Origin: Chloroflexota bacterium
GTDB taxonomy: Bacteria; Chloroflexota; UBA11872; UBA12225
Assembly: GCA_030447525.1 (NCBI GenBank)
Contig: JAUJOR010000010.1
Location: forward strand, 141,113-205,112
Length of the DNA stretch: 64,000 nucleotides
Direction: 5' to 3'
In this document: in pieces, positions 602 through 43,529 of the stretch
How the letters are laid out: each line of letters starts with the position of its first letter
Numbering within the stretch: position 1 is the first letter of the stretch
Notes under the pieces: model-generated
The model's input: the letters and a program-made list of their open reading frames with translations, nothing else
Told to the model about the DNA's origin: nothing
Database searches by the model: none
Position numbers and translations under genes: made by a program

Positions 602-657
602 GTCCCCTCCCTTTCCCGTCTCCGCTCCCGTCTCCGGGCGGGGGCCGTCCCCAGTCC

Positions 658-2391: not shown

Positions 2392-2679
2392 CTGCTCCGT
2401 TGCAATGTCAGGCGTGTCACTGCTGTGCCTCCTCGCGGGTCATGATCCGCGCCAGGGGGCGGGGCATTGCTTCGTTTGCATCAAGATGCGGCCATGGGGC
2501 CGCATCGTACCTGCAGCGAACGTCGCGCCGCCATCCCGGGCGGTGGCGGACCAGGCGATGAGCGCCGTGAAGGAGACGCCGGCCGCTCGACCAGAGCGAG
2601 CTTACCCGGCGCCGCGCCGACCCGTCGACACCAGCCCCTCAACAGGTGAGATACATAGGAGCGTCACTCACGCCCGCGC

Positions 2680-4071: not shown

Positions 4072-4308
4072 GCCATGATCTCCTCTTACGCTGGTCATGC
4101 TTGCATCCCTCCCTGGGAGACCTCTCCCAGTCAGACCAGGCCCCATCAGTGTGCCCGAGGACGCGCAGCCACCGGCCGGGCTTCTCGCCTCAGGCTGACC
4201 GACGGCCCGGACTTCCAGTGCCAGCTGCAAGAGGGCATCAAGCCGTTGCTGCCCAACCGCGCCTCGGTGGCGCAGGCGGTACGTGAGCTGCGCCGGATGT
4301 TGGAGCCG

Positions 4309-4336
4309 CAAGTCCGTAGTTACGTAGTTACGTAGT
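4309..4336. promoter_or_regulatory. AT-rich tandem repeat (GTAGTTAC x3, containing palindromic TACGTA cores) abutting the start codon of the glycoside-hydrolase gene
   Basis: CCGTAGTTACGTAGTTACGTAGTATGG stands out in a 70% GC background. It lies in the divergent SBP / GH intergenic region. Confidence 0.3.
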
Positions 4337-5449
4337 ATGGAAGAAAGTATGACAGCCGACAGGCTAGACCGATTTGGCGGCTGGACCGCCGTTCAAGCTG
4401 ACGCGACGGGGTTCTTCCGGGTAGCAGAGGTGGCCGGCCGGTGGTGGTTCATCACTCCGGAAGGGCATGGGTTCCTCTCGCTGGGTGTGAACCACATCGA
4501 CTCGTCGGCGCTGAAGTACCCGGATAACCACGCTGTCTGGAAGGGGCGCTTCGGGGACGAGGAGACGTTCCTAAAGCACGGAGTCTACCGGGATCTCACC
4601 GGGTGGGGTTTCAACACTATTGGATGGTCCCAGGAGGTGGTGGTGCCCGGCCGGACACACACCCCTCCTTGGGGCCATCACCAGTACCGGTGGGCCGGCC
4701 TCCCGTACTGTCACCTCCTCCCATTCAGTGAGATGGAGCTGTGGAACAAGTATCCAAGGTATCCCGACGTCTTCAGTACCGAGTTCGCGGATTGGTGTGA
4801 CTATGTAGCCCGCGCATCTTGCGCGGACATGGCCGACGATCCGTTCCTCATCGGCTACTTCTACGCCGATGTTCCTGCCTGGGGAGGGCACCCCGGGGGG
4901 CAGCAGTGGCCCGGCGCAGCGGAGGGGGATGCGGCCGGCCAGCCGGCTGATCTTCAGCACATTGCCGAGCGTTATTACCAGACCATTCACGACGCTGTGC
5001 GCCGGTACGATCCAAACCATCTCCTTCTGGGAGACCGGTACGAGGGTCGGGCACCCCTGCCGAAGGTGGTCTTAGACGCCATGGTCCCCACCGTAGACGT
5101 GGTGAGCATGCAGTATTTCCCGCCACTCGACGGTCTGCTTGATCTGGTGCAAGAATGGCATGGCGCTACGGGGAAGCCGGTCCTGCTCGCCGACAGCGCC
5201 TTCCACCTGCATAACCGACGCATGGCCATTGCCGGTCAGGCCGAGCGCGGCCGGCTGTACGCCGAATGGACGGAGCGCTGTTTCCAGGTCCCCTGCTTTA
5301 TCGGCTGGCACTGGTGTGCGTACATTGAGAATCTGTGCCGCCGCGCAGGGCTGAAGGACCGCTTCGATGAGCCATATGGTGAAGCGATCGGACCGATGAG
5401 CGAGGCTAATCGTCGCGTCTATCGGGTGGCTACCGGCACGCAGGCATGA
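4337..5449 (+). CDS. Putative glycoside hydrolase, TIM-barrel GH5-like / DUF4038-like family (family not resolved)
   Basis: 370-aa ORF with a WWFITPEGHGFLSLGVNHI cellulase-like N-terminal segment and a Trp/acidic-rich barrel. It is divergent from the SBP gene, and an AT-rich repeat sits at its start. Confidence 0.45.
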   Translation: MEESMTADRLDRFGGWTAVQADATGFFRVAEVAGRWWFITPEGHGFLSLGVNHIDSSALKYPDNHAVWKGRFGDEETFLKHGVYRDLTGWGFNTIGWSQEVVVPGRTHTPPWGHHQYRWAGLPYCHLLPFSEMELWNKYPRYPDVFSTEFADWCDYVARASCADMADDPFLIGYFYADVPAWGGHPGGQQWPGAAEGDAAGQPADLQHIAERYYQTIHDAVRRYDPNHLLLGDRYEGRAPLPKVVLDAMVPTVDVVSMQYFPPLDGLLDLVQEWHGATGKPVLLADSAFHLHNRRMAIAGQAERGRLYAEWTERCFQVPCFIGWHWCAYIENLCRRAGLKDRFDEPYGEAIGPMSEANRRVYRVATGTQA

Positions 5450-5474
5450 CGATCAATCTGCCGAGCCTTGTGCC

Positions 5475-5927
5475 CTACGCTTGCCTCAGGCTGGCGTGGA
5501 ACTCGTGGAAGTCCTCCAGCTTGTTCAGGGTCACGGCGTCCTTGATCGAGCCGTCGTCAGGCAGGCCCACGACGCTGAGGATGGACTGCCGCGTGCTGTC
5601 ATCATGGATGTACCCGGCGATGGCAGCGTTGTGGCGCTCAATGGCCGTCGGGTCGATCTGACCCCCCTTTTGCTGGCGTACCCACTGCTCGAACTGCGGG
5701 TACGTCGGGAACTCGGTCTTGAGGTACCCAATGGTCTGCTCGCGGTCGAGGCCCAGCCCGTCCAACGTCATCTGGTCGAAGCCCCTGCCACACTCGTCGT
5801 ACCCTTCGTGGAGCATCCCCTTGCTGCTCAGGAGCACCTTCTGCCACAGCCGCGGCAGGTGCATTGCCCCCAGCGGCCCCTTCACGTCAGAGCTGATCAA
5901 CGGCACCATCTTCTGCCCGGCCATCAC
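5475..5927 (-). CDS. DUF5069-family small protein
   Basis: 150 aa. The pattern VPLISSDVKGPLGAMHLPRLW...YPQFEQWV...GLPDDGSIKDAVTLNKL matches my recollection of the DUF5069 consensus. Confidence 0.5.
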   Translation of the reverse strand: MMAGQKMVPLISSDVKGPLGAMHLPRLWQKVLLSSKGMLHEGYDECGRGFDQMTLDGLGLDREQTIGYLKTEFPTYPQFEQWVRQQKGGQIDPTAIERHNAAIAGYIHDDSTRQSILSVVGLPDDGSIKDAVTLNKLEDFHEFHASLRQA

Positions 5928-6172
5928 ACCTCCCCTTCGTCGTCACGCCCCGGCAACCCGTTCGCCGGCGGCCCGTACATGGGGATGCGCCGGCCCCCGA
6001 GGCGGAGACAATGTAATCGGCCGGCGGCGCCGTGTCAAAGACCGGACCCGTCGTCGAGCGGACGCCATCGTCGCTTCGTGGGGCACGAAGGCGTTCGAGG
6101 CCCAGGGCCAGCGTGCGCTGCTCTACCAGTGAGCCACTCTCCCTATCCCGCTATCGTAGGGCAATAGCCTCC

Positions 6173-7075
6173 TCAATCGCCCTGACGCCACCGCTCATCG
6201 GCATCGGTCAGCAGGTGCCGCAGGTAGCTGTCTCGGTTCGTCAGAAAGTCGTGCGTGATCCGGAAGTACTCGGTGTCTTCGTACGCGACCGGCACGATGC
6301 TCGCCGCCGTGAGCTGGTAGATCCGAGCGGTAGGGTAGGCCAGCAAGACCGGCGAGTGCGTGGCGATCACGAACCGGGAGTCGCGGCGCCGGACGTGCTC
6401 ATCGAGCAGCGGGAGCAAGGCCAGCTGGCGGGCGGGAGAGAGGGCGGCCTCCGGTTCGTCCAGGAGGTAAAGGCCGTTCCCGCGGAAGCGGTGCGTTGCC
6501 AAGGCGAGAAACGCCTCGCGCCGGCCAAAGCTGCGCGCCGGCGCGGTGGTCTGGATTGCCAGCTCCATCAGAGGCCCAACTGTGTCCGCATTGGGGGGTT
6601 CATCGGTGTTGTGGCTCGGGGCTCGTTCAACTAAGTGCTTCAGGGTCGAAGCGGCGATGAAGCGCCGGAACGAGATGGAGGAGAGGCCGGCCAGGGCGCA
6701 CACGGCATCGCCCGGGAGGACCGGAATGGCGACGATCACGAACAGCCAGAGGCCGCCCCGTGCCGCCAGCACCCCGGTATAGCGCTCGATAGTCTGAGGC
6801 TTCAGCAGGCGCCGTACCAGTGGTTTCCCCCAGCGACGGGCGAGCGCAAACACCACCATCGAGCCAGCTGCTACGCCGCCCAGGGTGAGCGCGAGCGCCA
6901 TCCAGGGGCCGAAGGCCAGGGCGCCAACGGCAGGCAGCAGGCCGCCGGGGAGCGGCGAGAGGATCACCTGGGCGGCCTCGACGAGGAAGTAGGCCAGCGG
7001 CGCCAGGAGGCCAAACTCCTCGCCTGGCCACGCTCGCCCAGCGGGAGCGCCAGGTGACCCTGACGCGCGGGGCAC
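6173..7075 (-). pseudogene. Chimeric ORF: a TVP38/DedA-like membrane segment (about 6610-7075) fused to the C-terminal Walker-B/H-loop part of a COG3910-type AAA/ABC-like ATPase (about 6173-6610)
   Basis: The N-terminal half (LLAPLAYFLVEAAQVILSPLPGG...GKPLVRRLL) resembles the VTT/DedA domain. The C-terminal half (GLYLLDEPEAALSP...FVIATHSPVLLAYP) is an ATPase lacking its Walker A and signature motif. One frame spans two unrelated partial genes. Confidence 0.5.
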
Positions 7076-14919: not shown

Positions 14920-16618
14920 GGGCCTGTTGCCAAAGTCGGGTATGGTGGTCAGGAGGAGCACGGTGCGGGGTACGCGCGCCCCGTGCACGCGACGGGAACG
15001 GCCGCTGGGCCGGACCGGAGCTCGAACCGGGGACAGGCCCGCTTGAGAAGGGGGAGGGGCCCAACGCCGCACCCCCCATGGCCGGGCTGGGGGCGCGCCG
15101 TTGGGCCAGCTTCTTGACGTCGTACGCGATGGCGCGCCCAGCGCCTGGATCAGCACCTTGTCTCGCCCCCGACACTGCGCCCGCCGCAGCCCGTGACGGT
15201 CCTTCAGTTCGGCGTTGGCCGTCTCGACCCAGTACGCGCGCGGCGCCGGCTGCGCTTGGCGGGTGGCGTGCGGAGATAGGCGACGACTCGGTCGCGCAGT
15301 CCCCCATCGTCCGGGCGCACGAGGGTGCGGGCCGCCGGGCCGCAGCAGCACTGCGCCTTGACCGGGCACGCCCCGCAGACCTTCGGCCGCCTGCGGTAGA
15401 TCAGGCCACCGGCCGCCCCGGCAGTGCGCGAGGAGCCCTGGCGGGTGAGGAGCGTTCGGTGGGACACCGATAGCGATTAGCGATCGGCGGCGAACTCGTA
15501 CACGAAGCGGTCGGCAGAGTAGTCACCCCGGTCGCTCATGGTGCTGTGGGGCGGGATGCTCGCCCGGATGCCCTGCTGCTCCAGCGCCACGTAGTTGGCG
15601 TAGGTCCCGTACTTGGTATCCGCCACCACTTCGGCCACCGTACGCCCGGTCGTGCCTCGATGCTCCTTGAGCAGCCGGTCCAGCAGGTGCTCGTCGGCAA
15701 CCTCGCCCGGAGTCACGTCCAGCGCGGTGATGAGACGCGCCCGCCCGCCGTCCACGCCGACGTGCGCCTTGTAATAGAAGGCGTAGGGAGACCCCCTCGC
15801 GCTTGACCAGCCCCGCGTCGGGATCGGTGCGACTGGTCACCAAGGCGTTCACCGGCCCCCTGGTCCCCGTTGGGCACGTCCTCCGGACCGGCCACGTGCA
15901 GCGACGGGCGCGCCGCGCGCGTTCGCCGTGAGGCCACCGGCCGAGTCCGGCGCCGGCTGCTCCCCCTCGCCGGGAGGGCCGGCGGCGGCGTGGGATCGGA
16001 GACGGGATTCTCCTGCCACACCGTCGCGACGTACCCGGCCGCGCTCGGCAGCTGAGTGAGCAGCGCCCGCGCGCCGGCCGACCCAAGACTGGCATTGGCC
16101 TTGACCAGCGTGCTGTCCACGTAGAGGACGTCGCCCCGCACCAGGCCGGCCCGCTCGCGTTTCCACCACCTCGGTGAAAAGCCGCCTGGTACACGGGCAG
16201 GCCGAAGCGCGCCCGCGCCTTGGACAGCATCGAGTGGTCCGGCGCGTCTCGTCGAGGTCGTACCCCAAGAACCAGCGGAAGGCCAGGTGCAGGCGCGCCT
16301 CCTCGGCCAGCCGCCGCTCCGACGTGATGCCGTAGAGGTACCCGAGCAGCATCAGCTTGAACAGCACCACCGGATCGACCCCCGGCCGGCCGGTGTGGCT
16401 GTAGAACCGCGCCGTCAGCCGCCGCACAAAGCTGAGGTCGAGCGCCGCCCCGATGCGCCGCAGCAAGTGGTCGCTCGGGACCTGCGCTTCTAGCGAGAAC
16501 TCGTAGAAGCGCTTCGGCGTGAATTCCTTACGGCCCAACATCGTGCCCCACCTCGAACAGGGAGCCACCATCCTACTCAGACCTCGGCCGGTCCGGCCAG
16601 AGTTTGGCAACAGGCCCC
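14920..16618 (-). mobile_element. IS1182-family (IS5 superfamily) insertion sequence, copy A, with the transposase reading on the minus strand and frameshifted
   Basis: The 1699-bp element is bounded by terminal inverted repeats GGGGCCTGTTGCCAAA. Transposase pieces are FYEFSLEAQVPSDHLLRRI...GYLYGITSERRLAEEARLHLAFRWFLGYDLDE, VLYVDSTLVKANASL, DTKYGTYANYVALEQQGIRASIPP and the C-terminal CPVKAQCC...ETANAELKDRHGLRRA, spread over three or more frames. Confidence 0.8.
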
Positions 16619-27485: not shown

Positions 27486-27571
27486 GGCCGGCGCCGCGCT
27501 AGATGCTTCCACCGAGTTGTTGCGAGCGAATCCGGCTTCCCCGATCTGGGTCGGACCTGCAGGTACCCCAA

Positions 27572-29274
27572 GGGGCCTGTTGCCAAACTCTGGCCGGACC
27601 GGCCGAGGTCTGAGTAGGATGGTGGCTCCCTGTTCGAGGTGGGGCACGATGTTGGGCCGTAAGGAATTCACGCCGAAGCGCTTCTACGAGTTCTCGCTAG
27701 AAGCGCAGGTCCCGAGCGACCACTTGCTGCGCGCATCGGGGCGCGCTCGACCTCAGCTTTGTGCGGGCGGCTGACGGCGCGGTTCTACAGCCACACCGGC
27801 CGGCCGGGGGTCGATCCGGTGGTGCTGTTCAAGCTGATGCTGCTCGGGTACCTCTACGGCATCACGTCGGAGCGGCGGCTGGCCGAGGAGGCGCGCCTGC
27901 ACCTGGCCTTCCGCTGGTTCTTGGGGTACGACCTCGACGAGACGCCGCCGGACCACTCGATGCTGTCCAAGGCGCGGGCGCGCTTCGGCCTGCCCGTGTA
28001 CCAGGCGGCTTTCACCGAGGTGGTGCGCAGTGCGAGCGGGCCGGCCTGGTGCGGGGCGACGTCCTCTACGTGGACAGCACGCTGGTCAAGGCCAATGCCA
28101 GTCTTGGGTCGGCCGGCGCGCGGGCGCTGCTCACTCAGCTGCCGAGCGCGGCCGGGTACGTCGCGACGGTGTGGCAGGAGAATCCCGTCTCCGATCCCAC
28201 GCCGCCAGCGGCCCTCCCGGCGAGGGGGAGCAGCCGGCGCCGGACTCGGCCGGTGGCCTCACGGCGGCGCGCGCGCGCGCCCGTCGCTGCACGTGGCCGG
28301 TCCGGAGGACGTGCCCAACGGGGACCAGGGGCCGGTGAACGCCTTGGTGACCAGTCGCACCGATCCCGACGCGGGGCTGGTCAAGCGCGAGGGGGGTCCC
28401 CTACGCCTTCTATTACAAGGCGCACGTCGGCGTGGACGGCGGGCGGGCGCGTCTCATCACCGCGCTGGACGTGACTCCGGGCGAGGTTGCCGACGAGCAC
28501 CTGCTGGACCGGCTGCTCAAGGAGCATCGAGGCACGACCGGGCGTACGGTGGCCGAAGTGGTGGCGGATACCAAGTACGGGACCTACGCCAACTACGTGG
28601 CGCTGGAGCAGCAGGGCATCCGGGCGAGCATCCCGCCCCACAGCACCATGAGCGACCGGGGTGACTACTCTGCCGACCGCTTCGTGTACGAGTTCGCCGC
28701 CGATCGCTAATCGCTATCGGTGTCCCACCGGGCGTGGCACCCTCACCCGCCAGGGCCTCCTCGCGCACTGCCGGGGCGGCCGGTGGCCTGATCTACCGCG
28801 GGCGGCCGAAGGTCTGCGGGGCGTGCCCGGTCAAGGCGCAGTGCTGCGGCCCGGCGGCCGCCCGCACCCTCGTGCGCCCGGACGATGGGGGACTGCGCGA
28901 CCGAGTCGTCGCCTATCTCCGCACGCCACCCGCCAAGCGCAGCCGGCGCGCCGCGCGTACTGGGTCGAGACGGCCAACGCCGAACTGAATGGACCGTCAC
29001 GGGCTGCGGCGGCGCAGTGTCGGGGGCGAGACAAGGTGCTGATCCAGGCGCTGGGCGCGCCATCGCGTACGACGTCAAGAAGCTGGCCCAACGGCGCGCC
29101 CCCAGCCCGGCCATGGGGGTGCGCGTTGGGCCCCTCCCCCTTCTCAAGCGGGCCTGTCCCCGGTTCGAGCCTCCGGTCCCGGCCCAGCGGGCCGTTCCCG
29201 TCGCGTGCACGGGGCGCGCGTACCCCGCACCGTGCTCCTCCTGACCACCATACCCGACTTTGGCAACAGGCCCC
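27572..29274 (+). mobile_element. IS1182-family insertion sequence, copy B (plus orientation), transposase frameshifted
   Basis: The 1703-bp element has the same terminal repeats and internal sequence as copy A but in inverted orientation. Its indels differ from copy A (for example DLDETPPDHSMLSKARARFG reads through here). Confidence 0.8.
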
Positions 29275-29425
29275 AAGGAAGCACTTAGTGGGTCACGTTG
29301 CATTTAACTGGCGATGACCTGACCTGGTGAGCAAACCATTTATCTGCGGGTGGTGATTATATACTTGACGCAGTAGGAAACCTGTGAGACAATGTACTGG
29401 AACAAGAGTCCTAAGGTTGCCTACG

Positions 29426-30413
29426 ATGCCGAAGGCGAAGCCGGTTGATCCGCTCGAACTGACCACCAGCAGCATCGCGAAGTTCTTCTCTACGGAAGAG
29501 GACGCGTGGCTGATGGTGGAGCGGCTGCGCTGGCCTACGGGCACGGTCTGCCCGCACTGCGGCGTGATCGGCAATGCGACCTACCTCACGCCGAAGTCCG
29601 GCTATCGGACGACGCGGGCGGGCAACACGTCCTACCGTCGCGTATGGCAGTGCCGTGAGCGGGAATGCGGGCAACAGTTCAGCGTGCTCGTGAACACGGT
29701 GATGGAAGACACCAAGATCCCGGTGAGCAAGTGGCTGCTGGCGATGCACATGCTGTCCGCCGGCAAGAACGGCGTCTCCGCCCACGAGCTGCACCGGACG
29801 CTCGGCATCACCTACAAGAGCGCGTGGTTCATGGCCCACCGCATCCGCTACGCGATGGCGGAACCGGCGCGCGTCCTGTTGGGCGGCGTCGTAGAGGCCG
29901 ACGAGACCTACGTCGGCGGGCGCATCAAGCGGGCGCACGGTACCCCTAAGTCAAACAAGACTCCCGTCGTGACGCTGGTGAGCCGCGACGGCGAGGCGCG
30001 CTCCCAAGTCATGCACGCCGTGACGGGCGCGAACATCGGGCGGGTGCTCACGGAGCACGTTGCGCCGAGTGCCACGCTGATGACCGATGAGGCTTCCTTA
30101 TAGAGCCGGGTCGCGGGTTCGCCGGCCACGAGACGGTCAACCACAGCGCCGACGAGTATGTACGCGGGAGCGCCTACACCAACACCGTCGAAGGGTTCTT
30201 CAGCCAGCTGAAGCGCAGCATCGACGGGACGCACCACCACGTCAGCGAGTGGCACCTACACCGCTACTTGGCCGAATTTGACTTCCGCTACAATGCGCGC
30301 AAGATCAAGGACGGCGAGCGCACGGAACGTGCCTTTCAACAGGTGGCTGGAAAGCGGTTGATGTACCGGGACTCGTTGGGCGCCGCCGGATCGCCGCTGT
30401 CACGGTAGCGGCG
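29426..30413 (+). pseudogene. IS1595/ISXO2-like transposase with a single frameshift near 30100
   Basis: The N-terminal Zn-ribbon is WPTGTVCPHCGV...WQCRERECGQQF, followed by VEADETYVGG. After LMTDEASL there is a stop, and the protein continues in the +2 frame as FAGHETVNHSADEYVRGSAYTNTVEGFFSQLKRSIDGTHHHVSEWHLHRYLAEFDFRYNARK. Confidence 0.7.
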
Positions 30414-30428
30414 GGGGAGTGGACGCGC

Positions 30429-30635
30429 ATGGCGAAGCAAATCGGGCTGCATTTGGAGGGGGGCATGATATCTGCCCAGGTCTACCACCAGAAGGTGGGG
30501 GATTTCCTCGACATGCTCCGTGCCATAGACCGGAACGTTACCGAGGATATGGCTCCTGAATCCGATGCCCAGACCTCTATTACGTGGCTCGTGGAGAACG
30601 TGAGGAAGGGCAGCCTCGATCTGGCGCTCCAATGA
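30429..30635 (+). CDS. Hypothetical small protein, passenger of the IS1595-like element
   Basis: 68-aa ORF with no recognisable family. It overlaps the next ORF by a few nucleotides. Confidence 0.25.
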   Translation: MAKQIGLHLEGGMISAQVYHQKVGDFLDMLRAIDRNVTEDMAPESDAQTSITWLVENVRKGSLDLALQ

Positions 30636-30639
30636 CGGC

Positions 30640-31173
30640 GTGCTGGCGGCAGCCGTTGTCACTCCGCAAAAGCGCATTGTGCTCACCGACGACGTGAGAA
30701 CGAACCTGAACCGGTTCCTCCGTCCGGTGTTCTCTCACTATGGCTCCATTGAGGGCATCCTAGAGATGGTTTCCGTCGCCGGTGGCCCGCATTTCACTAT
30801 CCGTGATCGATTGAGCGGGCGGTCTATCCGATGCACAGTCCAGCAGGGCCGCGCGCGGGAAGTCGCCGGATTCTTGGAGCAGCGGGTCAGCGTAACCGGC
30901 CGCGTGCGAACTAACGAACTTGGTGGCGTGGTCAACGTGACGATGGAGGAAATTGAGCCGATCTCTCGTTCGAGGAAGCGGTTAAGCGGCTGCTCCAGGC
31001 GCCGCCCGTCTCGAACGAGGAACTGCTGGAAAAGACACGCCGCCCCCGGCGCAAGAATGCCGATCCGCGTCCGAACTAGCCCCCTCTGGTACTGTGTCAA
31101 GTATATAATCACCAGCCAACACGCTGCAGGCGGCCCTGGCGTTGATCATCCCGGCCCGCAAGTCGCAGTTTGA
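30640..31173 (+). CDS. Hypothetical protein, passenger of the IS1595-like element; the 3' end is uncertain
   Basis: 177-aa ORF whose last about 20 codons run through the right inverted repeat. It may form one product with the 30429 ORF after frameshift or coupling. Confidence 0.25.
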   Translation: MLAAAVVTPQKRIVLTDDVRTNLNRFLRPVFSHYGSIEGILEMVSVAGGPHFTIRDRLSGRSIRCTVQQGRAREVAGFLEQRVSVTGRVRTNELGGVVNVTMEEIEPISRSRKRLSGCSRRRPSRTRNCWKRHAAPGARMPIRVRTSPLWYCVKYIITSQHAAGGPGVDHPGPQVAV

Positions 31174-31411
31174 TGCCTGGACGAAGATCGCACCGGGCAA
31201 GAACCTCAAGAGCGCGCTACCCACCGACGTCGCCCGGCCGGACCCGGGCGCGGGGTGGCCCAGGGCCGCCGAGGTCAGCGCCGCGTCAATCCCATCATGC
31301 AGAATCTCTTCGATAAGATAAGAAGGAGATCTCGGTGCCGGATGCCCTCAAGCAGGCCCAGGACGCGAAGGTGGGCATCCTCGGCCCGGCGGCGGGCAAG
31401 TAGCGGGGGAG
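31114..31411 (+). pseudogene. C-terminal remnant of a sugar ABC SBP gene truncated by the IS insertions
   Basis: SBP-tail motifs in two frames (TLQAALALIIPARKSQFDAWTKIAPGKNLKSALP, then VPDALKQAQDAKVGILGPAAGK with a stop). There is no 5' part. Confidence 0.4.
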
Positions 31412-33103
31412 ATGCGCCTGCTGATAACGGGTGGTCAGAGCATGCTGGCGGGGGCCCTGGCCGACACGCTCGCCGGGGAGCACGGTGTACGACTCGTCGC
31501 TACCGAACACGCCGCCCTCGACGTCGCGCCCGGCGACCATGAGCTGCTGCGCGGCGATCTACGGGACTCCGGCTTCGCCCAGCGCGCGGTGGAGGGGGTC
31601 GACGCCATTCTGCACCTGGCGCCGCTGTGGTCGGGGCTCCCGCCGGACACAGCGGACGAGGTGCGGATCGATTGCGCCACGCGCGGGACGTACGTCCTGC
31701 TCAACGCCGCCGTCGCGGCCGGGGTGCGGCGAGTGGTGCTCGCCAGCACGCTCGACCTCTTCGCCGCCTACCCCAGCGACTGGTACGTGGGCGAGTCGTG
31801 GCGGCCCCGCCCCACAACCGATGTGACGCAGCTGGCGGCCTCGCTGGCGGAGGCCTCGGCCCGCGAGATCAGCCGGGTCGAGCCGCTGCACACCGTCTGC
31901 CTGCGCCTCGGGGAGGTCGTCGACGACCAGGACGTGGCAGGCACGCCGTACGACCCGCGGTGGCTGCACGTGGCCGACGCGGTACAGGCCTTCCGGCGCG
32001 CGCTGGCGTTCGGACTCGGCTCACGACAGTTCGCCACCACCGGTCCGCCGCTGCACGGCTGGTGGGTCTTCCACATCCCCGGCGGCGGCGCGCGGACGCA
32101 GGTGCCGCTGGCCTGGGCGCGCCACGAGCTGTTCGGGTACGCGCCCCAGCACACCTTCGCCTCTTCTCAAGACCAGATCGCGCCGCAGAACACCGCCCGC
32201 TCCTGGGGCGCCGCGGGCGCTCCTGACTCCTCGGCCACGCCGCCTCACGTGACGCGAGGTGTACCTCGCAAGACGACCGCGTCCCGTCCTATCCGCCGTG
32301 TCGTGGTCTTCGGCGCGGGCGGGCCGCTGGCCGCGGCCACGACGCCGCTGCTGACCGCTTCATACACGCTGCGGGCGACCGACCTGCGGTCGCTGCACGC
32401 CATCGCCGCTGACCCCAGGACGGCGGCGCCCGGGCGGCCGGTGCCGCCACTCCTGGCGCCACCGCACGAGATGCGCCAGGTGGACGTGACCGATCCGGCG
32501 CAGGTCATGGCGGCGTGCGCCGGGATGGACGCCATCGTGAACTGCTCGGTGGTGCGCCCCCACCCGGTGAACGCCTTTCTGGTCAACACCATCGGCGCGT
32601 ACAACATCGCCCGCGCCGCCGTGGCGCACGACATCCGGCGGGTGGTGCAGACGGGGCCGCAGCAGGTGACGATGGACCGCCCCGGCGGGTACTGGTGGGA
32701 CTTCGACGTGCCAGACGACGCGCCGGCGCGCCCGGGATCGCTGCTCTACAGCCACAGCAAGTACCTGGGGCAGGAGATCCTACGGATCTTCGCCGAGAAC
32801 CACGGCCTGGAGGTCCCGGTGCTGCTCTTCTCGCGCTTCGTAGATCCCGAGGTGAACCGTCCCAACATTGACGGCATGTTCCCGATGACGGTGTCGTGGC
32901 GGGACGCCGCCCTCGCCATCCGCTGCGCCTTGGAGGTGCCATCGCTGCCGGCGCCGTGCGAGGTGTTCCACATCCTGGCCGATCTACTGCACGGGAAGTA
33001 CCGCAACGAGAAGGCCAAACGGCTGCTGGGCTGGCAGCCCCGGGACACGCTGGAGCACCTCTGGGGCCGCCGTCACACCCTGGAAGAAGAAGCGGCCCGC
33101 TGA
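31412..33103 (+). CDS. Tandem fusion of two NAD-dependent epimerase/dehydratase (extended SDR) domains
   Basis: 563 aa. Domain 1 (MRLLITGGQSMLAGALADTL...) has a Rossmann fold. Domain 2 starts at about aa 290 (RRVVVFGAGGPLAAA...) and has the YxxxK catalytic motif YSHSKYLGQE. The start is preceded by GGGGGAG. Confidence 0.55.
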   Translation: MRLLITGGQSMLAGALADTLAGEHGVRLVATEHAALDVAPGDHELLRGDLRDSGFAQRAVEGVDAILHLAPLWSGLPPDTADEVRIDCATRGTYVLLNAAVAAGVRRVVLASTLDLFAAYPSDWYVGESWRPRPTTDVTQLAASLAEASAREISRVEPLHTVCLRLGEVVDDQDVAGTPYDPRWLHVADAVQAFRRALAFGLGSRQFATTGPPLHGWWVFHIPGGGARTQVPLAWARHELFGYAPQHTFASSQDQIAPQNTARSWGAAGAPDSSATPPHVTRGVPRKTTASRPIRRVVVFGAGGPLAAATTPLLTASYTLRATDLRSLHAIAADPRTAAPGRPVPPLLAPPHEMRQVDVTDPAQVMAACAGMDAIVNCSVVRPHPVNAFLVNTIGAYNIARAAVAHDIRRVVQTGPQQVTMDRPGGYWWDFDVPDDAPARPGSLLYSHSKYLGQEILRIFAENHGLEVPVLLFSRFVDPEVNRPNIDGMFPMTVSWRDAALAIRCALEVPSLPAPCEVFHILADLLHGKYRNEKAKRLLGWQPRDTLEHLWGRRHTLEEEAAR

Positions 33104-33192
33104 CCACCTGGCGCAGCTCTCTGAGTCCCAGAGCGGGGAGGTGCGTATCCTAAGGGCCATCCAGCCGATGCGCTGCGTGGGGAGGAACCGAA

Positions 33193-34533
33193 TTGAGACG
33201 GGGTGATGGCCAGACGATCGCCGAGCCGGCGCGGTCGGTGCCGGTGTACGGGAGCTGCGACGTGCTGGTGGTCGGCGGCGGCCCGGCCGGGTTCGCGGCG
33301 GCGGTGGCCGCCGCCCGCGAGGGGGCGGACGTGGTGCTCATCGAGCGCTACGGCCACCTCCGCGGGCTGGCCACCGGCGGGCTGGTCTTCTGGATCGACC
33401 GCATGACCGACTGGGGCGGCCACCTGGTGGTGGCCGGCATCGGGCAGGAGCTGATGGACCGCTGTGGCCAGGACGCCATCCTGGGACCGCCGCGGGAGCT
33501 GTGGGGGTCCGGCGACAAGGAGGCGGTGGCCTACTGGGGCATCCGCGCCAGCGCCCACCGCGGGGTGGTCACCTGGGCCCCCACCGTCGACCCGGAGCTG
33601 ATGAAGTGCGTCTCCAACGACATGGTGCGCGAGGCCGGCGTGCACACCCTCTTCCACTGCTGGGCCGTCGCCGCCATCCACGACGCCGGGCGCGTCCGGG
33701 GCGCAATCTTCGAGAGCAAGGAGGGGCGCTTCGCCCTGCTGGCGCGGGTGACGATCGACGCCTCGGGCGACGGCGACGTCTTCGCCGCCGCCGGCGCGGA
33801 CTACGAGAGCGACTTCGACAGCCAGACCATCCACGCCCGGGTGAACACCAGCTTCCGCTTCGGCAACGTGGACATGCCTCGCTACCTGGACTTCAAGCTG
33901 AACCAGGCGTCGGAGCACAACGAGCTGCTGCGTCGAGGGGCCGCCGCGGGGGTGGAGCTGCGCGTCCACGCCACGGCCTACGACTCCGTGGCCCTGTTCA
34001 TGACCCCCAAGTTCTCGGGGTACTCGGCGCTCAAGGTGGCCGATCTGACGGCGGTGGAGTTCCGCTCGCGCGACGCCATGCGCCAGGGCCTGGCCTGGTT
34101 CCGCGCCCACGTCCCCGGGTTCGAGCGGGCCTGGATCCTGGACACGGCGCCCCAGGTGGGCACGCGCCACACACGCCGCCTGGCCGGCGTCACGCGGGTG
34201 ACCCTTGACCACTGGCGGGCGAGCGGGCGCTACCCGGACGCCATCGGCCTCTGCCCCGGACTGACGCCCGAGTTCCCGACGCTGGAGATCCCCTACGGCT
34301 GCCTCGTGCCCCAGCGCCTGGACGGCGTCCTGGCCGCCGGGCGGAACCTCTCCGCCGACCCGCCGTCGCACAACCCGCTGCGCGAGGTGCCGGAGTGCTG
34401 GGTGATGGGCCAGGGTGCGGGTCTGGCCGCCGCCCTGGCCGTGCGGAATGACGTCTCCCTGCGCGACGTGCCCATGTCCGAACTCCAGCAGAAGCTCCGC
34501 CGGCAGGGCGCCGTCGTCGACCCGCCGGCCTGA
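33193..34533 (+). CDS. FAD-dependent oxidoreductase (pfam12831-like, typical of polysaccharide-utilisation loci)
   Basis: DVLVVGGGPAGFAAAVAAAREGADVVLIER is a dinucleotide-binding motif. The TTG start is preceded by GGGAGGA. Length is 446 aa. Confidence 0.65.
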   Translation: MRRGDGQTIAEPARSVPVYGSCDVLVVGGGPAGFAAAVAAAREGADVVLIERYGHLRGLATGGLVFWIDRMTDWGGHLVVAGIGQELMDRCGQDAILGPPRELWGSGDKEAVAYWGIRASAHRGVVTWAPTVDPELMKCVSNDMVREAGVHTLFHCWAVAAIHDAGRVRGAIFESKEGRFALLARVTIDASGDGDVFAAAGADYESDFDSQTIHARVNTSFRFGNVDMPRYLDFKLNQASEHNELLRRGAAAGVELRVHATAYDSVALFMTPKFSGYSALKVADLTAVEFRSRDAMRQGLAWFRAHVPGFERAWILDTAPQVGTRHTRRLAGVTRVTLDHWRASGRYPDAIGLCPGLTPEFPTLEIPYGCLVPQRLDGVLAAGRNLSADPPSHNPLREVPECWVMGQGAGLAAALAVRNDVSLRDVPMSELQQKLRRQGAVVDPPA

Positions 34534-34777
34534 CGCGCCGGGGTTTTTGGCCGGTGCCTGGATCGGCCGGTGCCTGGATCACTCAACGTCCCATCGGAAG
34601 GCCACGTCAGTGGCTGTCTTGAGCACCCCGGGCCACGATCTGTAGTACGCTCGAGCCGCTGTCCGCCCGGGCGCTGAAACGGGGAGACCGCGCCGCACGT
34701 GAGCGGCGGGCGACCGGCGCCGCTTGTGGCCGGCGCTGTCCGGGGGCACAATGCCTCAAGAGAGGGGCACCACATCC

Positions 34778-36115
34778 ATGAACCGGATCGAGCAGCAGAT
34801 GAAACGACACCTGAGTCGCCGGAAGGCCATTGGCGGCGCAGCGGCGATGGCGGGCGTTATCGGCGCCGCCTGCACGGGTACGGCCGGCCCGGAATCGAGA
34901 GCGACCGGGAGTGAGACCGAAGCCGGTGAGGTGGAGTGGTCGCAGTGGGGGAGCAACGCCGACTTCGCCATTGCGCAGGCGCAGGTCGACGCCTACAACG
35001 CCACGCGGCCGAAGCTGCCGGTGCGCGCCAACCTCCTCACCGGCAACTACCTCGAGAAGCTGCGGGCCATGGTGTCCGCCGGCAGCCCTCCGGACCTCCA
35101 GCACCACAACTCCGGCCAGTTCGAGGCGCTCTCCGCCACCAAGGCCTTTTTCGACCTGGACCCCCTGATCAAGCGCGACAAGTACCGTCTGGACGACATC
35201 TACCCTGCCTTCCAGGACGGCGTGAAGTTCGGGGGCAAGATGTTCGCCCTGCCCACCACGGGCGCCAACATCCTGCTGTTCTACAACCGCACCCTGTTCG
35301 ACAAGGCCGGCCGGAAGTACCCCACGCCAGAGTGGGGCTGGCGCGACCTGGAGGAGGCGGCACGGGCGCTCACCAACTCCGCCGGCGCCGACCAGACGTG
35401 GGGGTTCCACGTGCGCAACTCCGTCTCCAACTGGGCGTCCACCATCTGGCAAAACGGAGGCGAGATCTGGAACGCCGACATGACTCGGTGCCTGATCAAC
35501 GAGCCGGCCGCGGTGGAGGCGTTGGAGTTCTTCTACGGCCTCAAGACCAGGCACAATGCCTCCCCGCCGCCGGACGTGCTCACGGCCGGCGGGGGCGAGC
35601 GGGGCCTGTTCATGGCCGGCAAGCTGGCCATCAACCCCACCGGGGCCCACCAGCGCTTCGAGTACGTGGCCATCGACGGCTTCCAGTGGGACCTGCAAGT
35701 GCTGCAGCAGGGAAAGAAGCGCACGAACATCCTGTTCACCGACATGGAGGCGATCGACGCCGGCACGACACGCCCGCAAGCAACCTGGGAGTTCCTGAAG
35801 TGGCTCGTGGCCGACCCGGGGCAGGAGATCCGGGCGGACAAGGTGCGGGCCATCCCCTCCAGCCGCAAGTACGTGGAGACGGCGGCCTTCCGCAACAACC
35901 CGGCGGGGAAGAACAACAAGGCTATCGCCGACGACATGCCCCACGGGCGCGTCCCGCCGAACGCCAACTCACTGTTCTTTGAGCTCAACGAGCGCTGGAA
36001 CCCGGAGCTCCTGGCGCTCTACAACGGCACCAGGCCGGCCAAGGCCGTGGCCGAGGCGATGGCGGAGCAGACGAACGCCCTGCTCAAGACGTCAGGGGGC
36101 AAGGCCCTAAAGTAA
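34778..36115 (+). CDS. ABC transporter sugar-binding protein (Tat-lipoprotein)
   Basis: MNRIEQQMKRHLSRRKAIGGAAAMAGVIGAACTG is a Tat/lipobox signal, with AGAGAGGGG as SD. The protein has the family-1 SBP fold. Confidence 0.8.
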   Translation: MNRIEQQMKRHLSRRKAIGGAAAMAGVIGAACTGTAGPESRATGSETEAGEVEWSQWGSNADFAIAQAQVDAYNATRPKLPVRANLLTGNYLEKLRAMVSAGSPPDLQHHNSGQFEALSATKAFFDLDPLIKRDKYRLDDIYPAFQDGVKFGGKMFALPTTGANILLFYNRTLFDKAGRKYPTPEWGWRDLEEAARALTNSAGADQTWGFHVRNSVSNWASTIWQNGGEIWNADMTRCLINEPAAVEALEFFYGLKTRHNASPPPDVLTAGGGERGLFMAGKLAINPTGAHQRFEYVAIDGFQWDLQVLQQGKKRTNILFTDMEAIDAGTTRPQATWEFLKWLVADPGQEIRADKVRAIPSSRKYVETAAFRNNPAGKNNKAIADDMPHGRVPPNANSLFFELNERWNPELLALYNGTRPAKAVAEAMAEQTNALLKTSGGKALK

Positions 36116-36141
36116 GGCCAAGCCGCGCGACCGCGTAGGAA

Positions 36142-37461
36142 ATGCGAGAGGAGTCGAAGTTGACAGACCGCATCATGCACCGCCGGGGGATACTGGGTCT
36201 GCTCGCCAGCGCGCCGATCATCGCCGCCTGCGGCACGGCGGACGGGCCACGGGCACCCACGGCCGCGCGCCGCCCGGCGACTCTGGACTTCCTTCACGCC
36301 GATGGCCCGCCCCAGAAAGAGAAGCTGGAGCGCATCGCCGAGGGCTTCAAGGCCAAGAACGCCGGCTCGCAGATCAATGTCATCTACACGCCGTGGGGCG
36401 AGTTCGAGACCAAGATCGTCGCCTTGCACACCGCCGGCACGCCGCCGGACTTCCACCAGATCGACGACGACGCCGTCCCCTTCTTCGCCATGCGCGACCT
36501 CCTCCTGCCGGCAGACGCGCTCCTGAAGGAGCACGCCATCAACCGCGGCGACTACCACAAGATGATCTGGGACCTGACCACGGTACAGGGCAAGGTGATG
36601 GCCCTCACCCTGGCCCTCAAGCCGCGGGCCTACCTCTACAACCGCGACCTGTTCGACCAGGCGGGCATCAAGGCCCCCACTACCTGGGCGCAGGCCTGGT
36701 CGGCCGACCAGCTGCAAGAGCACGCCCGCAAGCTCACCCAGGGCGACGTGTGGGGCTACATGTGGGACTATTGGATCTGGGACTCCATCCCAGCCATGAA
36801 CGGCGGCGACCATTTCTCGCCGACCTGGACGGAGTACCTCATCCCCCGCTACGCCGACGCCTACCAGTGGATCGCCGACCTGGCCTACAAGCAGCGCGTC
36901 GCCCCGCCGCCGGACGTGCGCCGGCAGCCCGGCGGGGAGCGCCAGATGTTCACCAACGGGAAGCTGGCCATCTGGAACACCACCATCTCGGTGGCCCGGC
37001 AGCTCAACGACGCCAAGGACCTGCGCTGGGACGTCATGCCCGTGGCCAAGCTGCTGCAGAGTGCCAAGGCCGAGGCCAGCCTGTTCACCTTCTCCATGGC
37101 CAAGGCGACCAAAGACCCGGCCGGGACGGCGGCGTTCGCGTCCTACTTCATGACCGACGCGGCGCAGGAGATCATGGCCGAGGGCGGCGACCTGATGCCG
37201 GTGAAGACCAGCGTCCAGAACTCCAAGGCCTTCCTCGATCCGGCCCGGCAGCCGCAGCAGGCCAAGGTGTGGATCGAGTCGCTCGAGCACCAGGGGCGCT
37301 GGCCCTTCCTCTACAACGGCATCGAGCTGCGGGACGAGGTCCGGCCGGCGGTGGACCTGATCTGGAACGGCCAGGCGCAGGCCAAGGAGGCCCTGGAGGG
37401 GGTGCGTCCCAGGATCATGGAGCTGCTCAAGGTCTCCCAAGAAAAGATGAATCGGCGCTGA
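36142..37461 (+). CDS. ABC transporter sugar-binding protein
   Basis: It has a lipoprotein signal (ILGLLASAPIIAACG) and SBP motifs. An alternative TTG start at 36161 has a better SD. Confidence 0.75.
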   Translation: MREESKLTDRIMHRRGILGLLASAPIIAACGTADGPRAPTAARRPATLDFLHADGPPQKEKLERIAEGFKAKNAGSQINVIYTPWGEFETKIVALHTAGTPPDFHQIDDDAVPFFAMRDLLLPADALLKEHAINRGDYHKMIWDLTTVQGKVMALTLALKPRAYLYNRDLFDQAGIKAPTTWAQAWSADQLQEHARKLTQGDVWGYMWDYWIWDSIPAMNGGDHFSPTWTEYLIPRYADAYQWIADLAYKQRVAPPPDVRRQPGGERQMFTNGKLAIWNTTISVARQLNDAKDLRWDVMPVAKLLQSAKAEASLFTFSMAKATKDPAGTAAFASYFMTDAAQEIMAEGGDLMPVKTSVQNSKAFLDPARQPQQAKVWIESLEHQGRWPFLYNGIELRDEVRPAVDLIWNGQAQAKEALEGVRPRIMELLKVSQEKMNRR

Positions 37462-39874: not shown

Positions 39875-39944
39875 CGTGACAGCCCGTTCAATCCCGGTTA
39901 TTTCGAATGCCGCGCGAAATGGCCAGGCGGAAGGGGACGGCGTC

Positions 39945-40712
39945 GTGCCGCGGGCGCAGACGCGCAGCCTGCAGCGGGGGCTGGCGACGCTGGAGTACGT
40001 GGCGCAGGCGGGCGAGGTCAGCGTGTCGGAGGTGGCGGCGGCGCTGGGGTTGCCCCGCCCCTCGGCCCACATCCTCCTGCGTACCCTGACGGAGGCCGGG
40101 TACCTGCGCCAGGCCCGGCGCCGCGGGCGCTACCGCCCGGACCTGCGCGTGCTACAGGTGGCGCGAGACGTCTTAGCGCGGCTGGCCGTGCGGGAGCGGG
40201 CGGCCCCTCTGCTGCACGAGCTGGCCCAGGCGACGGGGCTCAGCGTCTACCTGGCTGTCCTCGCGCGGGGAGAGGCGATGACGGTAGACCGTGTCGTCCC
40301 CAAGCCCCGCCCGGCGGCGCGGGCGGACATCGGCGTGACCAACCCGGCCTACGCCTCGGCCATGGGCAAAGCGCTCCTGGCGTACCTCCCGCCGGCGGAG
40401 CTGGAGGGCTACCTGACTACGGTGCGCCTGGAGCCGGTGACCGAGCGGACGATCACCTCCGTGGCCGCCCTGCGGCGGGAGCTGGCCCGCGTGCTGGAGC
40501 AAGGCTACGCCCTCAGCGAAGGGGAGCACCGCCCGGGCGTGCGCAGCGTCGCCGCGCCGGTGTTCACCCACACCGGGGAGGCGGTGGCCGCCCTCTGCGC
40601 GCGCCACGACACTCCCGCCAGCGAGCCCCCGCCGGAGGCGCTCATCCGCAGCGTTGTGGAGGCCGCCGAGCGCATCTCGCACACCCTGGGCTACGGCGCC
40701 TTGCTCGAATGA
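39945..40712 (+). CDS. IclR-family transcriptional regulator
   Basis: The N-terminal HTH is SLQRGLATLEYVAQAGEVSVSEVAAALGLPRPSAHILLRTL and the C-terminal domain is the effector-binding domain. The GTG at 39945 is preceded by GAAGGGGA. An alternative GTG lies at 39876. Confidence 0.65.
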   Translation: MPRAQTRSLQRGLATLEYVAQAGEVSVSEVAAALGLPRPSAHILLRTLTEAGYLRQARRRGRYRPDLRVLQVARDVLARLAVRERAAPLLHELAQATGLSVYLAVLARGEAMTVDRVVPKPRPAARADIGVTNPAYASAMGKALLAYLPPAELEGYLTTVRLEPVTERTITSVAALRRELARVLEQGYALSEGEHRPGVRSVAAPVFTHTGEAVAALCARHDTPASEPPPEALIRSVVEAAERISHTLGYGALLE

Positions 40713-41877: not shown

Positions 41878-42143
41878 TCCGAATAGCGCCCAGGGTACGC
41901 CGTGGCACCATACCTATCATGTACGGGAAGTATATGAGGTCGCCGGACGAGGGCGTCTGTCGTCTGGCCTTCCCTGCTGCTGTGACCGGCCACAGGGCCG
42001 GTTGCTTCGGAAGAGCGCCGTTTGACCGAGCCGGCGGGCTGAACTACCATGCCGGTCGAGGGGGGCTCGTTTGACGGACTCGCGCGCGGCTGAGGAGCGA
42101 TGTCCCGTTTGAGCCGACGAGATTGACACGGGGAGGGAGCACC

Positions 42144-43529
42144 ATGAGCCCGAAACAGGAACCGGTAGCCAGCACGGTGGGGCGGGCGACCCGCCGCGGG
42201 GTGGTACGCGTCGGCGCCGGGCTGGCCGGGCTCGGCGTCTTCGCCGCCTGCGGGCAGGCGGGGGGCTCTCCCGGGGCGGCCAGGCCGGCGCTGTTCAAGG
42301 AGCGTACGGTGCTGCGCTACCAGAGCTACAAGAACCCCGAGGAGCTGGCCGTCTTCCAGCAGGGCGTGCAGCGCTGGGTGGAGCGCGTCGGCAATGTGGA
42401 GGTCCAGACCGACATCGTCCCCCAGGGAGAGTACATCGAGAAGCTGCTGGTGCGCATCAGTGGGGGCGACCCGCCGGACATGATGGAGGTCAACGACCGC
42501 ATGTCCAGCGACTTCATCATGCGCGGTACGCTCCTCGAACTGACCGACCGCATCAAGCGCGACGGCAAGGAGGTCGACCTCGACGACGTCTTCCCGGCCT
42601 ACCGTGACGTGCTGCTCTACAAGGGCAAGCGCTACGGCATCCCGGACTACTGCGGCCCGACGGTGATGTACGTCAACAAGCTGTTCTTCCAGCAGGCCGG
42701 GCAGCCCCTGCCGGACGACTCCTGGGACTGGGACAAGTTCCTGGAGGTGGGGCGGATCCTCACCAAAGACACCAACGGCGATAAAGTGCCCGATCAGTTC
42801 CTGACCACCAACTCCCTGGGTGGCAGCCCCTCCTGGACGCCGATGCTGTGGTGGAGCTTCGGCGGCGACATGATCAAAGGGCCGGGGCCGCACCATCCGA
42901 ATGAGACGGAGTGGCTGCTCGACCGCCCGCCGGAGACCGCCCGGGCCAACGCGGCGGCGGTGGAGTACTGGGGTTCGCTCATCTACCGGCACAACGTCAT
43001 CCCGCAGCCGGGGCAGCGGGGGGACTTCCAGCGCACAGCCAACATCGCCACCGAGATCGCCGGGCGCTGGCTGGTGCCCATCTACCGCACGCTCGACTTC
43101 GTGCAGCAGGGCTACCTGACCATGGTGCTGCCGCCCAAGGGGCCCAAGGGACGCAAGGTGCGCAACTCGACCTTGAACGCCACCATCCCGATCAACGCCA
43201 AGCGCCCGGACGAGGCGTGGGAGCTGGTCAAGTTCCACACCGGCCCGGAGGGCATGTCGGTGGCGGTGGAGGGCCAGCGCACCAACTCCACCCGCAAGAG
43301 CGTGATGGAGGCGTTCAAGAAGTCCCTCCTGCCGTGGGAGAGCTATGACGTCTACGCCAAGGCCAACGAGCTGTTCACGCAGCCGATGCCCATGACCTAC
43401 AACTGGACGCTGGCGGAGCGGACGCTCAGCGATGGCTTGAACGCCGCCTACCGGGGCGAGAAGTCGGCCGGGCAGGCGCTCAAGGAACTCCAGGTGCAGC
43501 TCGACGAGCTGATGAAGCGCGGCCTGTAG
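42144..43529 (+). CDS. ABC transporter sugar-binding protein (Tat-lipoprotein)
   Basis: The ATG is preceded by GGAGGG. The signal is RATRRGVVRVGAGLAGLGVFAACG. Confidence 0.8.
   Translation: MSPKQEPVASTVGRATRRGVVRVGAGLAGLGVFAACGQAGGSPGAARPALFKERTVLRYQSYKNPEELAVFQQGVQRWVERVGNVEVQTDIVPQGEYIEKLLVRISGGDPPDMMEVNDRMSSDFIMRGTLLELTDRIKRDGKEVDLDDVFPAYRDVLLYKGKRYGIPDYCGPTVMYVNKLFFQQAGQPLPDDSWDWDKFLEVGRILTKDTNGDKVPDQFLTTNSLGGSPSWTPMLWWSFGGDMIKGPGPHHPNETEWLLDRPPETARANAAAVEYWGSLIYRHNVIPQPGQRGDFQRTANIATEIAGRWLVPIYRTLDFVQQGYLTMVLPPKGPKGRKVRNSTLNATIPINAKRPDEAWELVKFHTGPEGMSVAVEGQRTNSTRKSVMEAFKKSLLPWESYDVYAKANELFTQPMPMTYNWTLAERTLSDGLNAAYRGEKSAGQALKELQVQLDELMKRGL

Follow-up and report, generated by a model that had tools for sequence, protein, structure and literature searches.

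Near the middle of a 64,000-nucleotide stretch of DNA from a Chloroflexota bacterium (GenBank assembly GCA_030447525.1, contig JAUJOR010000010.1, positions 141,113 to 205,112 of the forward strand; this whole stretch is referred to as the window), a pair of inverted repeats encloses a broken transposase gene and additional coding sequence. The locus raises the question of what kind of mobile element this was, and whether its extra coding sequence is an addiction or defence module, as a first-pass annotation of the DNA had suggested. The reading proposed here, and held with good confidence, is that the unit is a dead derivative of a 2.6-kb transporter insertion sequence (IS), and that two cargo genes of the intact form, open reading frame 2 (ORF2) and a PIN-domain gene, most likely constitute a VapBC-like toxin/partner pair.

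The inverted-repeat unit and its three deletions

A repeat finder places 28-nt inverted-repeat arms, matching at 26 of 28 positions, at 29348-29375 and 31090-31117. The 18-nt repeat core, GGTGATTATATACTTGAC, is present at only two sites in the window, one in each arm, against a chance expectation of 0. With the register set by relatives that have target duplications, the element ends lie at 29352 and 31113 and read GGTGATTAT, which gives a length of 1,762 bp; these termini are shared with the related elements L001, L013, L019 and L020. The GC content of the element is 62.4%, compared to 69.8% for the window. The first-pass description of an AT-richer, repeat-bounded unit of 1.76 kb that holds coding sequence beyond its transposase is thereby borne out.

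To the left, the element encodes a transposase in two frames. The rejoined protein matches PF12762 (E 2.2e-36) and the zinc ribbon PF12760 (E 4.4e-10) in Pfam and is of the IS1595/ISXO2 type, as first annotated. Its closest database relatives carry the name IS1595 family transposase, it shares 85% and 76% identity with P0167 and P0168, respectively, over 93-98% of its length, and it has the motif NTVEGFFSQLKR (E-x6-K). The N-terminal product, which is identical to database protein P0170, ends at a premature TAG at 30101-30103. Alignment with L001, the metagenome contig that encodes the closest ORF2 homologue, indicates that this stop is created by a 4-bp deletion at about 30103.

Comparison with L001 likewise accounts for the cargo region. 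Three collinear blastn blocks (window 29354-30629 to L001 777-2059, 86.6% identity; 30628-30953 to 2225-2550, 94.5%; and 30969-31110 to 3244-3385, 86.6%) leave gaps of 167 bp and 678 bp in the window copy. The first gap falls between two mechanical ORFs of 68 aa (30429-30635) and 177 aa (30640-31173). When the 68-aa ORF is joined to the next frame, a protein database search returns 16 proteins of 269-287 aa, none of which has a Pfam domain. Aligned with these homologues, the window sequence matches residues 1-66, skips ~55 residues that 16 of the 16 retain, resumes at SNDGVL… and loses homology after …MEEIE. Judged from this alignment, the 68-aa and 177-aa ORFs are collinear fragments of one ~270-aa gene, ORF2, broken by the 167-bp deletion. 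The second gap begins ~40 codons before the end of ORF2 and takes in all of the PIN gene together with ~22 codons at the start of a small fourth gene, ORF4.

These alignments bear directly on the first-pass proposal that the element carries two functional, overlapping passenger genes (68 aa and about 127-177 aa) as an addiction or defence pair. Both ORFs do exist mechanically, and the first has an ATG after a purine-rich stretch, but the two are collinear with a single protein that is full-length in 16 close homologues and are joined precisely at a frameshifting deletion. An internal GTG, moreover, is the start of the second ORF, whose homology stops at 30956 and whose frame stays open across the right repeat and into the flank, and the conserved PIN partner is gone. 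A functional two-gene pair in the window copy is consequently very improbable.

It could also be asked whether the lesions exist at all, since a real genome with an intact element might yield such a sequence through assembly or sequencing errors. Two nearby IS1182 copies are both read in several frames, with 29 gap positions between them, which could hint at indel-prone sequencing. However, an independently assembled Logan contig (L012, run SRR24765285) is 100% identical to window 29293-33621, a span of 4,329 bp without mismatch or gap that crosses the element and includes all three lesions. The lesions are therefore not assembly noise. Deletions of 167 bp and 678 bp are, in addition, unlike base-calling errors, and the neighbouring genes of 446-563 aa are intact, so that an artefactual origin has hardly any probability. 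The window element is a dead, immobile deletion derivative of a ~2.6-kb IS1595-family element, in which nothing functional remains (Table 1).

Table 1. Features of the decayed element and its immediate surroundings, in window coordinates
Feature	Position	Strand	Evidence or remark
IS1182/IS5-type copy B	27574..29272 (about)	+	6-bp duplication CCAAGG at 27568-27573 and 29273-29278
73-bp spacer, ~49% GC	29279..29351	.	Separates IS1182 copy B from the IS1595 left end
Left terminal inverted repeat, GGTGATTATATACTTGACGCAGTA	29352..29375	+	Repeat similarity reaches outward to 29348
Promoter-like site, TTGACG, 17 nt, TG-n-GACAAT	29365..29393	+	Consensus match only; partly within left repeat, facing transposase
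Transposase, N-terminal 225 codons: zinc ribbon, helix-turn-helix (HTH), first part of DDE domain	29426..30103	+	PF12760 and PF12762
Transposase, C-terminal part, -1 frame, …HETVNH…NTVEGFFSQLKR…GKRLMYRDS…	30104..30409	+	Three-frame translation; natural stop 30407-30409
ORF2 fragment A ("68-aa ORF"), residues 1-66 of the predicted OB-fold cargo protein	30429..30628	+	blastn to L001 up to 2059
Deletion 1 junction: 167 bp (55 codons + 2 nt) of ORF2 gone, frame shifted	30628..30629	+	Window 30629 = L001 2059, 30628 = L001 2225
ORF2 fragment B (part of "177-aa ORF"), predicted OB-fold domain, SNDGVL…VTMEEIE	30629..30956	+	94.5% DNA identity to L001 2225-2550
Deletion 2 junction: 678 bp gone	30954..30957	+	Window 30953 = L001 2550, 30969 = L001 3244
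ORF4 remnant, C-terminal 40 codons, ADLSFEEAVKRLLQAPP…, without start codon	30957..31079	+	Matches L001 62-aa ORF and L013 52-aa ORF
Right terminal inverted repeat	31090..31113	-	Repeat similarity reaches outward to 31117
Pseudogene remnant, probably C-terminal ~95 codons of a solute-binding protein	31114..31403	+	Three frames needed

The promoter-like site in the left repeat is the sole sigma-70-like match in 29250-31450, where 0.4 are expected, and its hexamer regions are kept in both L001 and L013. Rfam and tRNA scans of the region gave no matches. An 8-bp target duplication was not found at the window element, whose flanks, CTGCGGGT and AGCCAACA, differ. This absence fits a later rearrangement and is no argument against IS1595 membership.

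Intact relatives as a mobile four-gene unit

What the window copy has lost is evident from its relatives. The intact form has terminal inverted repeats of ~24 bp and four closely spaced genes that share a strand. The L001 element spans 2,614 bp, has ends like those of the window copy (GATGATTATATAC...) and encodes, in order, the transposase, a 272-aa ORF2, a 170-aa PIN protein (PF01850, E 2e-7) and a 62-aa basic ORF4 (…TDLPFEEAVKRLLQAPPVSNEELLEK…). A second element, located via a transposase search, is one insertion recovered from six related metagenome samples (L013-L018). The L013 element is 2,585 bp in length, with ends GGCGATTATATAC… and a perfect 8-bp duplication, GTGGCGAG, and contains genes for a 323-aa transposase (76% identical to that of the window), a 274-aa ORF2, a 176-aa PIN protein and a 52-aa ORF4. 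Because the target duplication surrounds all four genes, it both fixes the true ends of the element and indicates that the unit transposes whole.

The same arrangement is found on plasmids. In a tblastn search of PLSDB with the transposase, alphaproteobacterial relatives were recovered at identities of at most 44%. On plasmid p1318-1 of Roseomonas marmotae, an element of 2,604 bp terminates in GGGGATTAT… between the two copies of a perfect 8-bp duplication, TATCTTTA, and is annotated as an IS1595 family transposase, a hypothetical protein of 266 aa, a PIN domain-containing protein of 191 aa and a hypothetical protein of 61 aa. Methylobacterium oryzae pMOC1 has the same gene order and a left end that reads GGCGATTATATCC; here the PIN gene is annotated by PGAP as "type II toxin-antitoxin system VapC family toxin", and the small ORF has the FEEAVK motif of ORF4. 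By hhalign, both Roseomonas proteins can be tied to those of the metagenomic elements: the 266-aa one to the ORF2 profile (probability 86%, E 4.9e-6), and the PIN protein to the PIN alignment (96%, E 3.4e-9). A tblastn search for ORF2 relatives in plasmids returned none, and the plasmid elements were reached only through the transposase. Target duplications enclose all four genes in both the L013 and the Roseomonas elements, and the intact four-gene relatives thus transpose as one unit.

Other copies show the element in various states. In L001 (1740-1860), the transposase stops ~17-20 codons before those of its relatives (306 versus 323 aa); together with a missing target duplication, this short transposase may mean that decay is under way there too. 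L007 holds a further copy with a degenerate right end, in which a PIN ORF of 248 aa (1147-1893) has a long Pro/Ala-rich C-terminal extension into the usual ORF4 region and may be a fusion or a frameshifted variant. In L005, the left end is degenerate, and what is left of the transposase, a stub of 100 codons, lies immediately 5' of the ORF2-PIN pair. The neighbours of this pair (599-6588; JGI Ga0209810_1003175) are defence-island-like: a type I restriction-modification system (HsdR-like and HsdS-like), an MqsA-like antitoxin and a DUF2283 protein.

No other copies were found in the GTDB species-representative genomes with the ORF2 profile and a 21-nt repeat pattern, and in JGI metagenomes the pattern had a single match, L006. 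This contig (Ga0214471_10205489, 1-1616) has a right-end repeat like that of the window (…TACTGTGTCAAGTATATAATCGTC) and a different interior. A 171-aa protein (phrog_22031, weak MtlR-like match) is encoded there, and the other strand holds a basic ORF of 51 aa in which a similar '…LLKRLWEMPPEP…KK' motif occurs. This arrangement suggests alternative cargos between the same IS ends. Among more distant IS1595 transposases that were sampled (Pseudosulfitobacter, Azospirillum, ISRm32 and Salipiger), the cargo is either none or different. In Salipiger profundus pTPRO6 (L025, NZ_CP014802.1, 2492-5140), an IS1595 transposase of 34% identity is directly followed by a 555-aa zinc-ribbon-domain protein, which may be a different passenger within the family. 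At two Mesorhizobium plasmid loci (L026 and L027; transposases ~43-44% identical), PIN cargo is not recognisable.

Passenger-carrying members of the IS1595 family are not a novelty, contrary to the first-pass view that they are uncommon: the transporter IS (tIS) was defined on this very family (Siguier et al. 2009, as cited in PMC3129680 and PMC7986276). The present elements resemble those tIS in their zinc-ribbon and DDE_Tnp_IS1595 transposase, in their short repeats beginning GGnnATTAT, and in that intact relatives with 8-bp duplications have non-transposition genes inside the repeats that move along. In contrast, the window copy is inactive, is without a target duplication and has only cargo remnants inside its repeats. 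Among the papers that could be searched, none connects IS1595 to PIN or VapC cargo, and prior cataloguing of such elements in ISfinder or in the 2009 paper is possible.

The OB-fold protein and its PIN partner

Two of the cargo genes, ORF2 and PIN, also occur in a wider setting than the IS. The ORF2 family comprises 2,303 cluster representatives at E ≤ 1e-3 and 1,102 at E ≤ 1e-10. A PIN gene lies directly downstream of ORF2 in 12 of 12 independent intact loci (L001, L002, L005, L007, L008, L009, L010, L011, L013, L019, L020 and the L003/L004 pair), and in all 12 the ORF2 stop and PIN start either overlap by 4-17 nt or abut within 3 nt, a bicistronic layout. The PIN proteins of the relatives match PF01850 at E 2e-7 to 3.6e-12, and residues D7, E53 and D106 are invariant in 9 of 9 sequences. 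In intact elements these proteins are ~170-190 aa in length and have a ~40-aa C-terminal extension. ORF4 (52-62 aa, basic), which has no Pfam match, accompanies only the IS-borne versions of the pair. ORF4 was ruled out as a displaced C-terminus of the transposase, since 12 related transposases end in …GKRLxY… without the FEEAVK motif. A third, upstream gene was also ruled out as a part of the distant ORF2-PIN loci, the upstream ORFs of L009 and L010 being unrelated.

ORF2 has no match in Pfam, NCBIfam, PADLOC or PHROGs, and its profile has none among PDB sequences. An AlphaFold2 model of the homologue P0001 (pLDDT 82, pTM 0.72) consists of an N-terminal alpha/beta domain and a C-terminal OB fold, the latter resembling the folds of the lysyl-tRNA synthetase (LysRS) anticodon-binding domain, single-stranded DNA-binding protein (SSB) and Stn1. 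Fragment B of the window copy has a weak OB-fold match of its own (tRNA_anti_2, E 0.02). The C-terminal ~40 residues of the model are of low confidence, yet hold invariant positions. In a Foldseek comparison of this model (m3aa1737120e2) with viral predicted structures, matches over the full length (E 1e-8 to 1e-10) had TM scores that were modest, at 0.37-0.45; the matched proteins are an uncharacterised phage protein (DUF6575), one from Myoviridae and Q6NE06 of Leptospira phage LE1. The two-domain architecture of ORF2 may also be present in phages.

The most natural comparison is with VapBC. As in that system, the PIN protein has conserved D, E and D residues, and its gene directly follows that of its partner, with an overlap. 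Unlike VapB, the partner is several times larger, contains a predicted OB fold and has no recognisable VapB-type DNA-binding domain, and the PIN protein carries the C-terminal extension; growth arrest by the toxin and its neutralisation through direct binding would be expected of a VapBC-type pair. Because the upstream partner is atypically large and lacks a recognisable antitoxin DNA-binding domain, ORF2-PIN is described here as probably working like VapBC and is not classed as a member. The PIN gene, the putative toxin gene, is present in the relatives and absent from the window copy, from which the 678-bp deletion removed it. The suggestion of an addiction or defence module consequently survives for the intact relatives, where a VapC-like PIN gene stands beside the passenger, and fails for the window copy.

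A second comparison is with toxin-antitoxin pairs, PIN types included, that are embedded in Tn3-family transposons (Lima-Mendez et al. 2020, PMC7157771); one such transposon has a truncated toxin gene and an intact antitoxin. The PIN gene and upstream partner of the intact elements likewise lie inside a transposable element, beside transposition genes. The carrier differs, however: it is a small IS that lacks a resolvase and whose DDE transposase is ~320 aa long. The partner, a ~270-aa protein with a predicted OB fold, differs from the ribbon-helix-helix (RHH), Phd or AbrB antitoxins of the Tn3-embedded pairs, and a third small gene is conserved.

From these parts a mechanism can be proposed. 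The promoter-like site in the left repeat would drive a four-gene operon, and the DDE transposase would move the whole unit with the production of 8-bp duplications, a step evident from those at L013 and in Roseomonas. Toxicity would reside in the PIN RNase, which ORF2 would restrain, probably through its own C-terminal tail. The pair would then penalise loss of the element or of its replicon, or might serve abortive-infection defence. In the window copy, decay involved truncation of the transposase by the 4-bp deletion, a frameshift of ORF2 by the 167-bp deletion and removal of PIN by the 678-bp deletion. Loss of the whole toxin gene while fragments of its partner stay is a decay order that toxin-antitoxin logic permits.

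Several observations count against this account. No target duplication is found at the L001 element, as at the window copy. At 250-290 aa, ORF2 is 4-5x larger than typical VapB antitoxins, and searches of it for a DNA-binding domain of the RHH, AbrB, Phd or HTH type found none. The fourth acidic PIN residue is unconserved. The metagenomic PIN and ORF4 proteins are not recognised by PADLOC, PHROGs or NCBIfam. The pair is not exclusive to the IS, as ORF2-PIN pairs at L002 and L008-L011 have no transposase nearby. The ends of the element (GGnGATTAT…) agree with the ISNwi1 subgroup, which has the end consensus ggnnatTAT and a DDEK-type catalytic motif, and this placement is tentative. Finally, the toxicity of the PIN protein and its neutralisation by ORF2 are inferred.

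Two other functions could be assigned to the intact cargo. In the first, ORF2 and PIN would form a nucleic-acid-processing complex, with the OB-fold subunit giving the PIN protein its substrate specificity, for transposition or regulation of the transposase. Consistent with this idea, four genes are packed on one strand behind the promoter-like site of the left repeat, ORF2 is large and has a predicted nucleic-acid-binding fold, ORF4 is confined to IS-borne versions, and retention of the architecture across phyla at only ~44% transposase identity suggests an integral role. Such a complex is nevertheless improbable, as the pair is widespread without a transposase, many related IS1595 transposases move without this cargo, and a coupled upstream partner and PIN gene is the classic type II toxin-antitoxin layout.

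In the second, the cargo would be an anti-phage abortive-infection system spread by the IS, in which the OB fold of ORF2 senses phage nucleic acid and releases PIN. The restriction-modification and MqsA-like neighbours of the L005 pair, the Mrr-type restriction enzyme that adjoins the L001 pair, and the full-length Foldseek resemblance to phage proteins are in keeping with such a system. Against it, PADLOC models match no component, no ORF2 relatives were found in IMG/VR, and the neighbours at L002, L009 and L011 are ordinary metabolic genes. A dedicated anti-phage function is therefore regarded as unlikely, although it overlaps the preferred toxin/partner reading rather than excluding it.

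A broader proposal concerns the lineage as a whole and is put forward tentatively, as a real possibility that falls short of an expectation. An IS1595 lineage, represented on Chloroflexota-like metagenome contigs and alphaproteobacterial plasmids by transposases that are ~44% identical, may carry the module of OB-fold protein, PIN and small basic protein as an integral part. The OB-fold protein would found an unannotated family of at least 1,100 clusters at 50% identity, and the module could be an undescribed PIN toxin/partner or defence system adopted for IS maintenance.

Surroundings of the element and its significance

The element was first described as nested with IS1182 copy B. The two are separate insertions, copy B lying 73 bp to the left with its own duplication. 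Copy B is 97.6% identical over 1,716 bp to an inverted copy A (about 14921-16616; 29 gap positions), which likewise has its own 6-bp duplication, CCCTGG, and whose N-terminal ORF matches PF05598 DUF772 (E 3.5e-16). Both copies look degenerate, being read in several frames, and because each keeps its own target duplication, no inversion has occurred between them since insertion. The intervening spacer has no match to the flanks or interior of L001 or L013.

To the right of the element, the sequence at 31114-31403 had been described as the orphaned C-terminus of a solute-binding protein (SBP) gene disrupted by the insertion. The only homologue found is a metagenomic protein fragment, P0166, to whose C-terminal 95 aa the remnant is 50% identical (E 2.6e-16); the N-terminus of P0166 in turn matches SBP_bac_8 positions 221-264 below threshold (E 0.043). 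The remnant has no Pfam match and no significant similarity to the three intact SBP genes of the window or to PDB sequences. Its homology starts exactly at the IS edge, and across the element the 5' part of the gene is missing. An SBP remnant, and the disruption of an SBP gene, are thus plausible but weakly supported; as the 5' part and a target duplication are both absent, a border deletion or rearrangement is likelier than simple insertion into an intact gene. The truncated, frameshifted state of the remnant similarly makes a later deletion or rearrangement at the element edge likely. Downstream of the remnant lie three intact SBP_bac_1 genes (34724-37461 and 42123-43529), two of them in tandem, and an IclR regulator (39876-40712). 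The IS cluster is situated at the edge of a sugar-uptake region, in a rearranged, pseudogene-rich spot upstream of the sugar-uptake locus.

For the source genome the element carries little weight, as it is an inactive fossil beside two decayed IS copies and a dead, unremarkable example of an element type already known. The parts of wider value are the cargo and the ORF2 family: a common, unannotated family of ~270-aa proteins with a predicted OB fold, paired with PIN at all loci checked, of which one branch travels in IS1595 as a fixed four-gene unit. If the pair is indeed a toxin and its partner, the presence of toxin-antitoxin modules within transposition modules, so far a feature of Tn3, would also be a feature of small IS, and the repertoire of PIN partners would gain a new kind.

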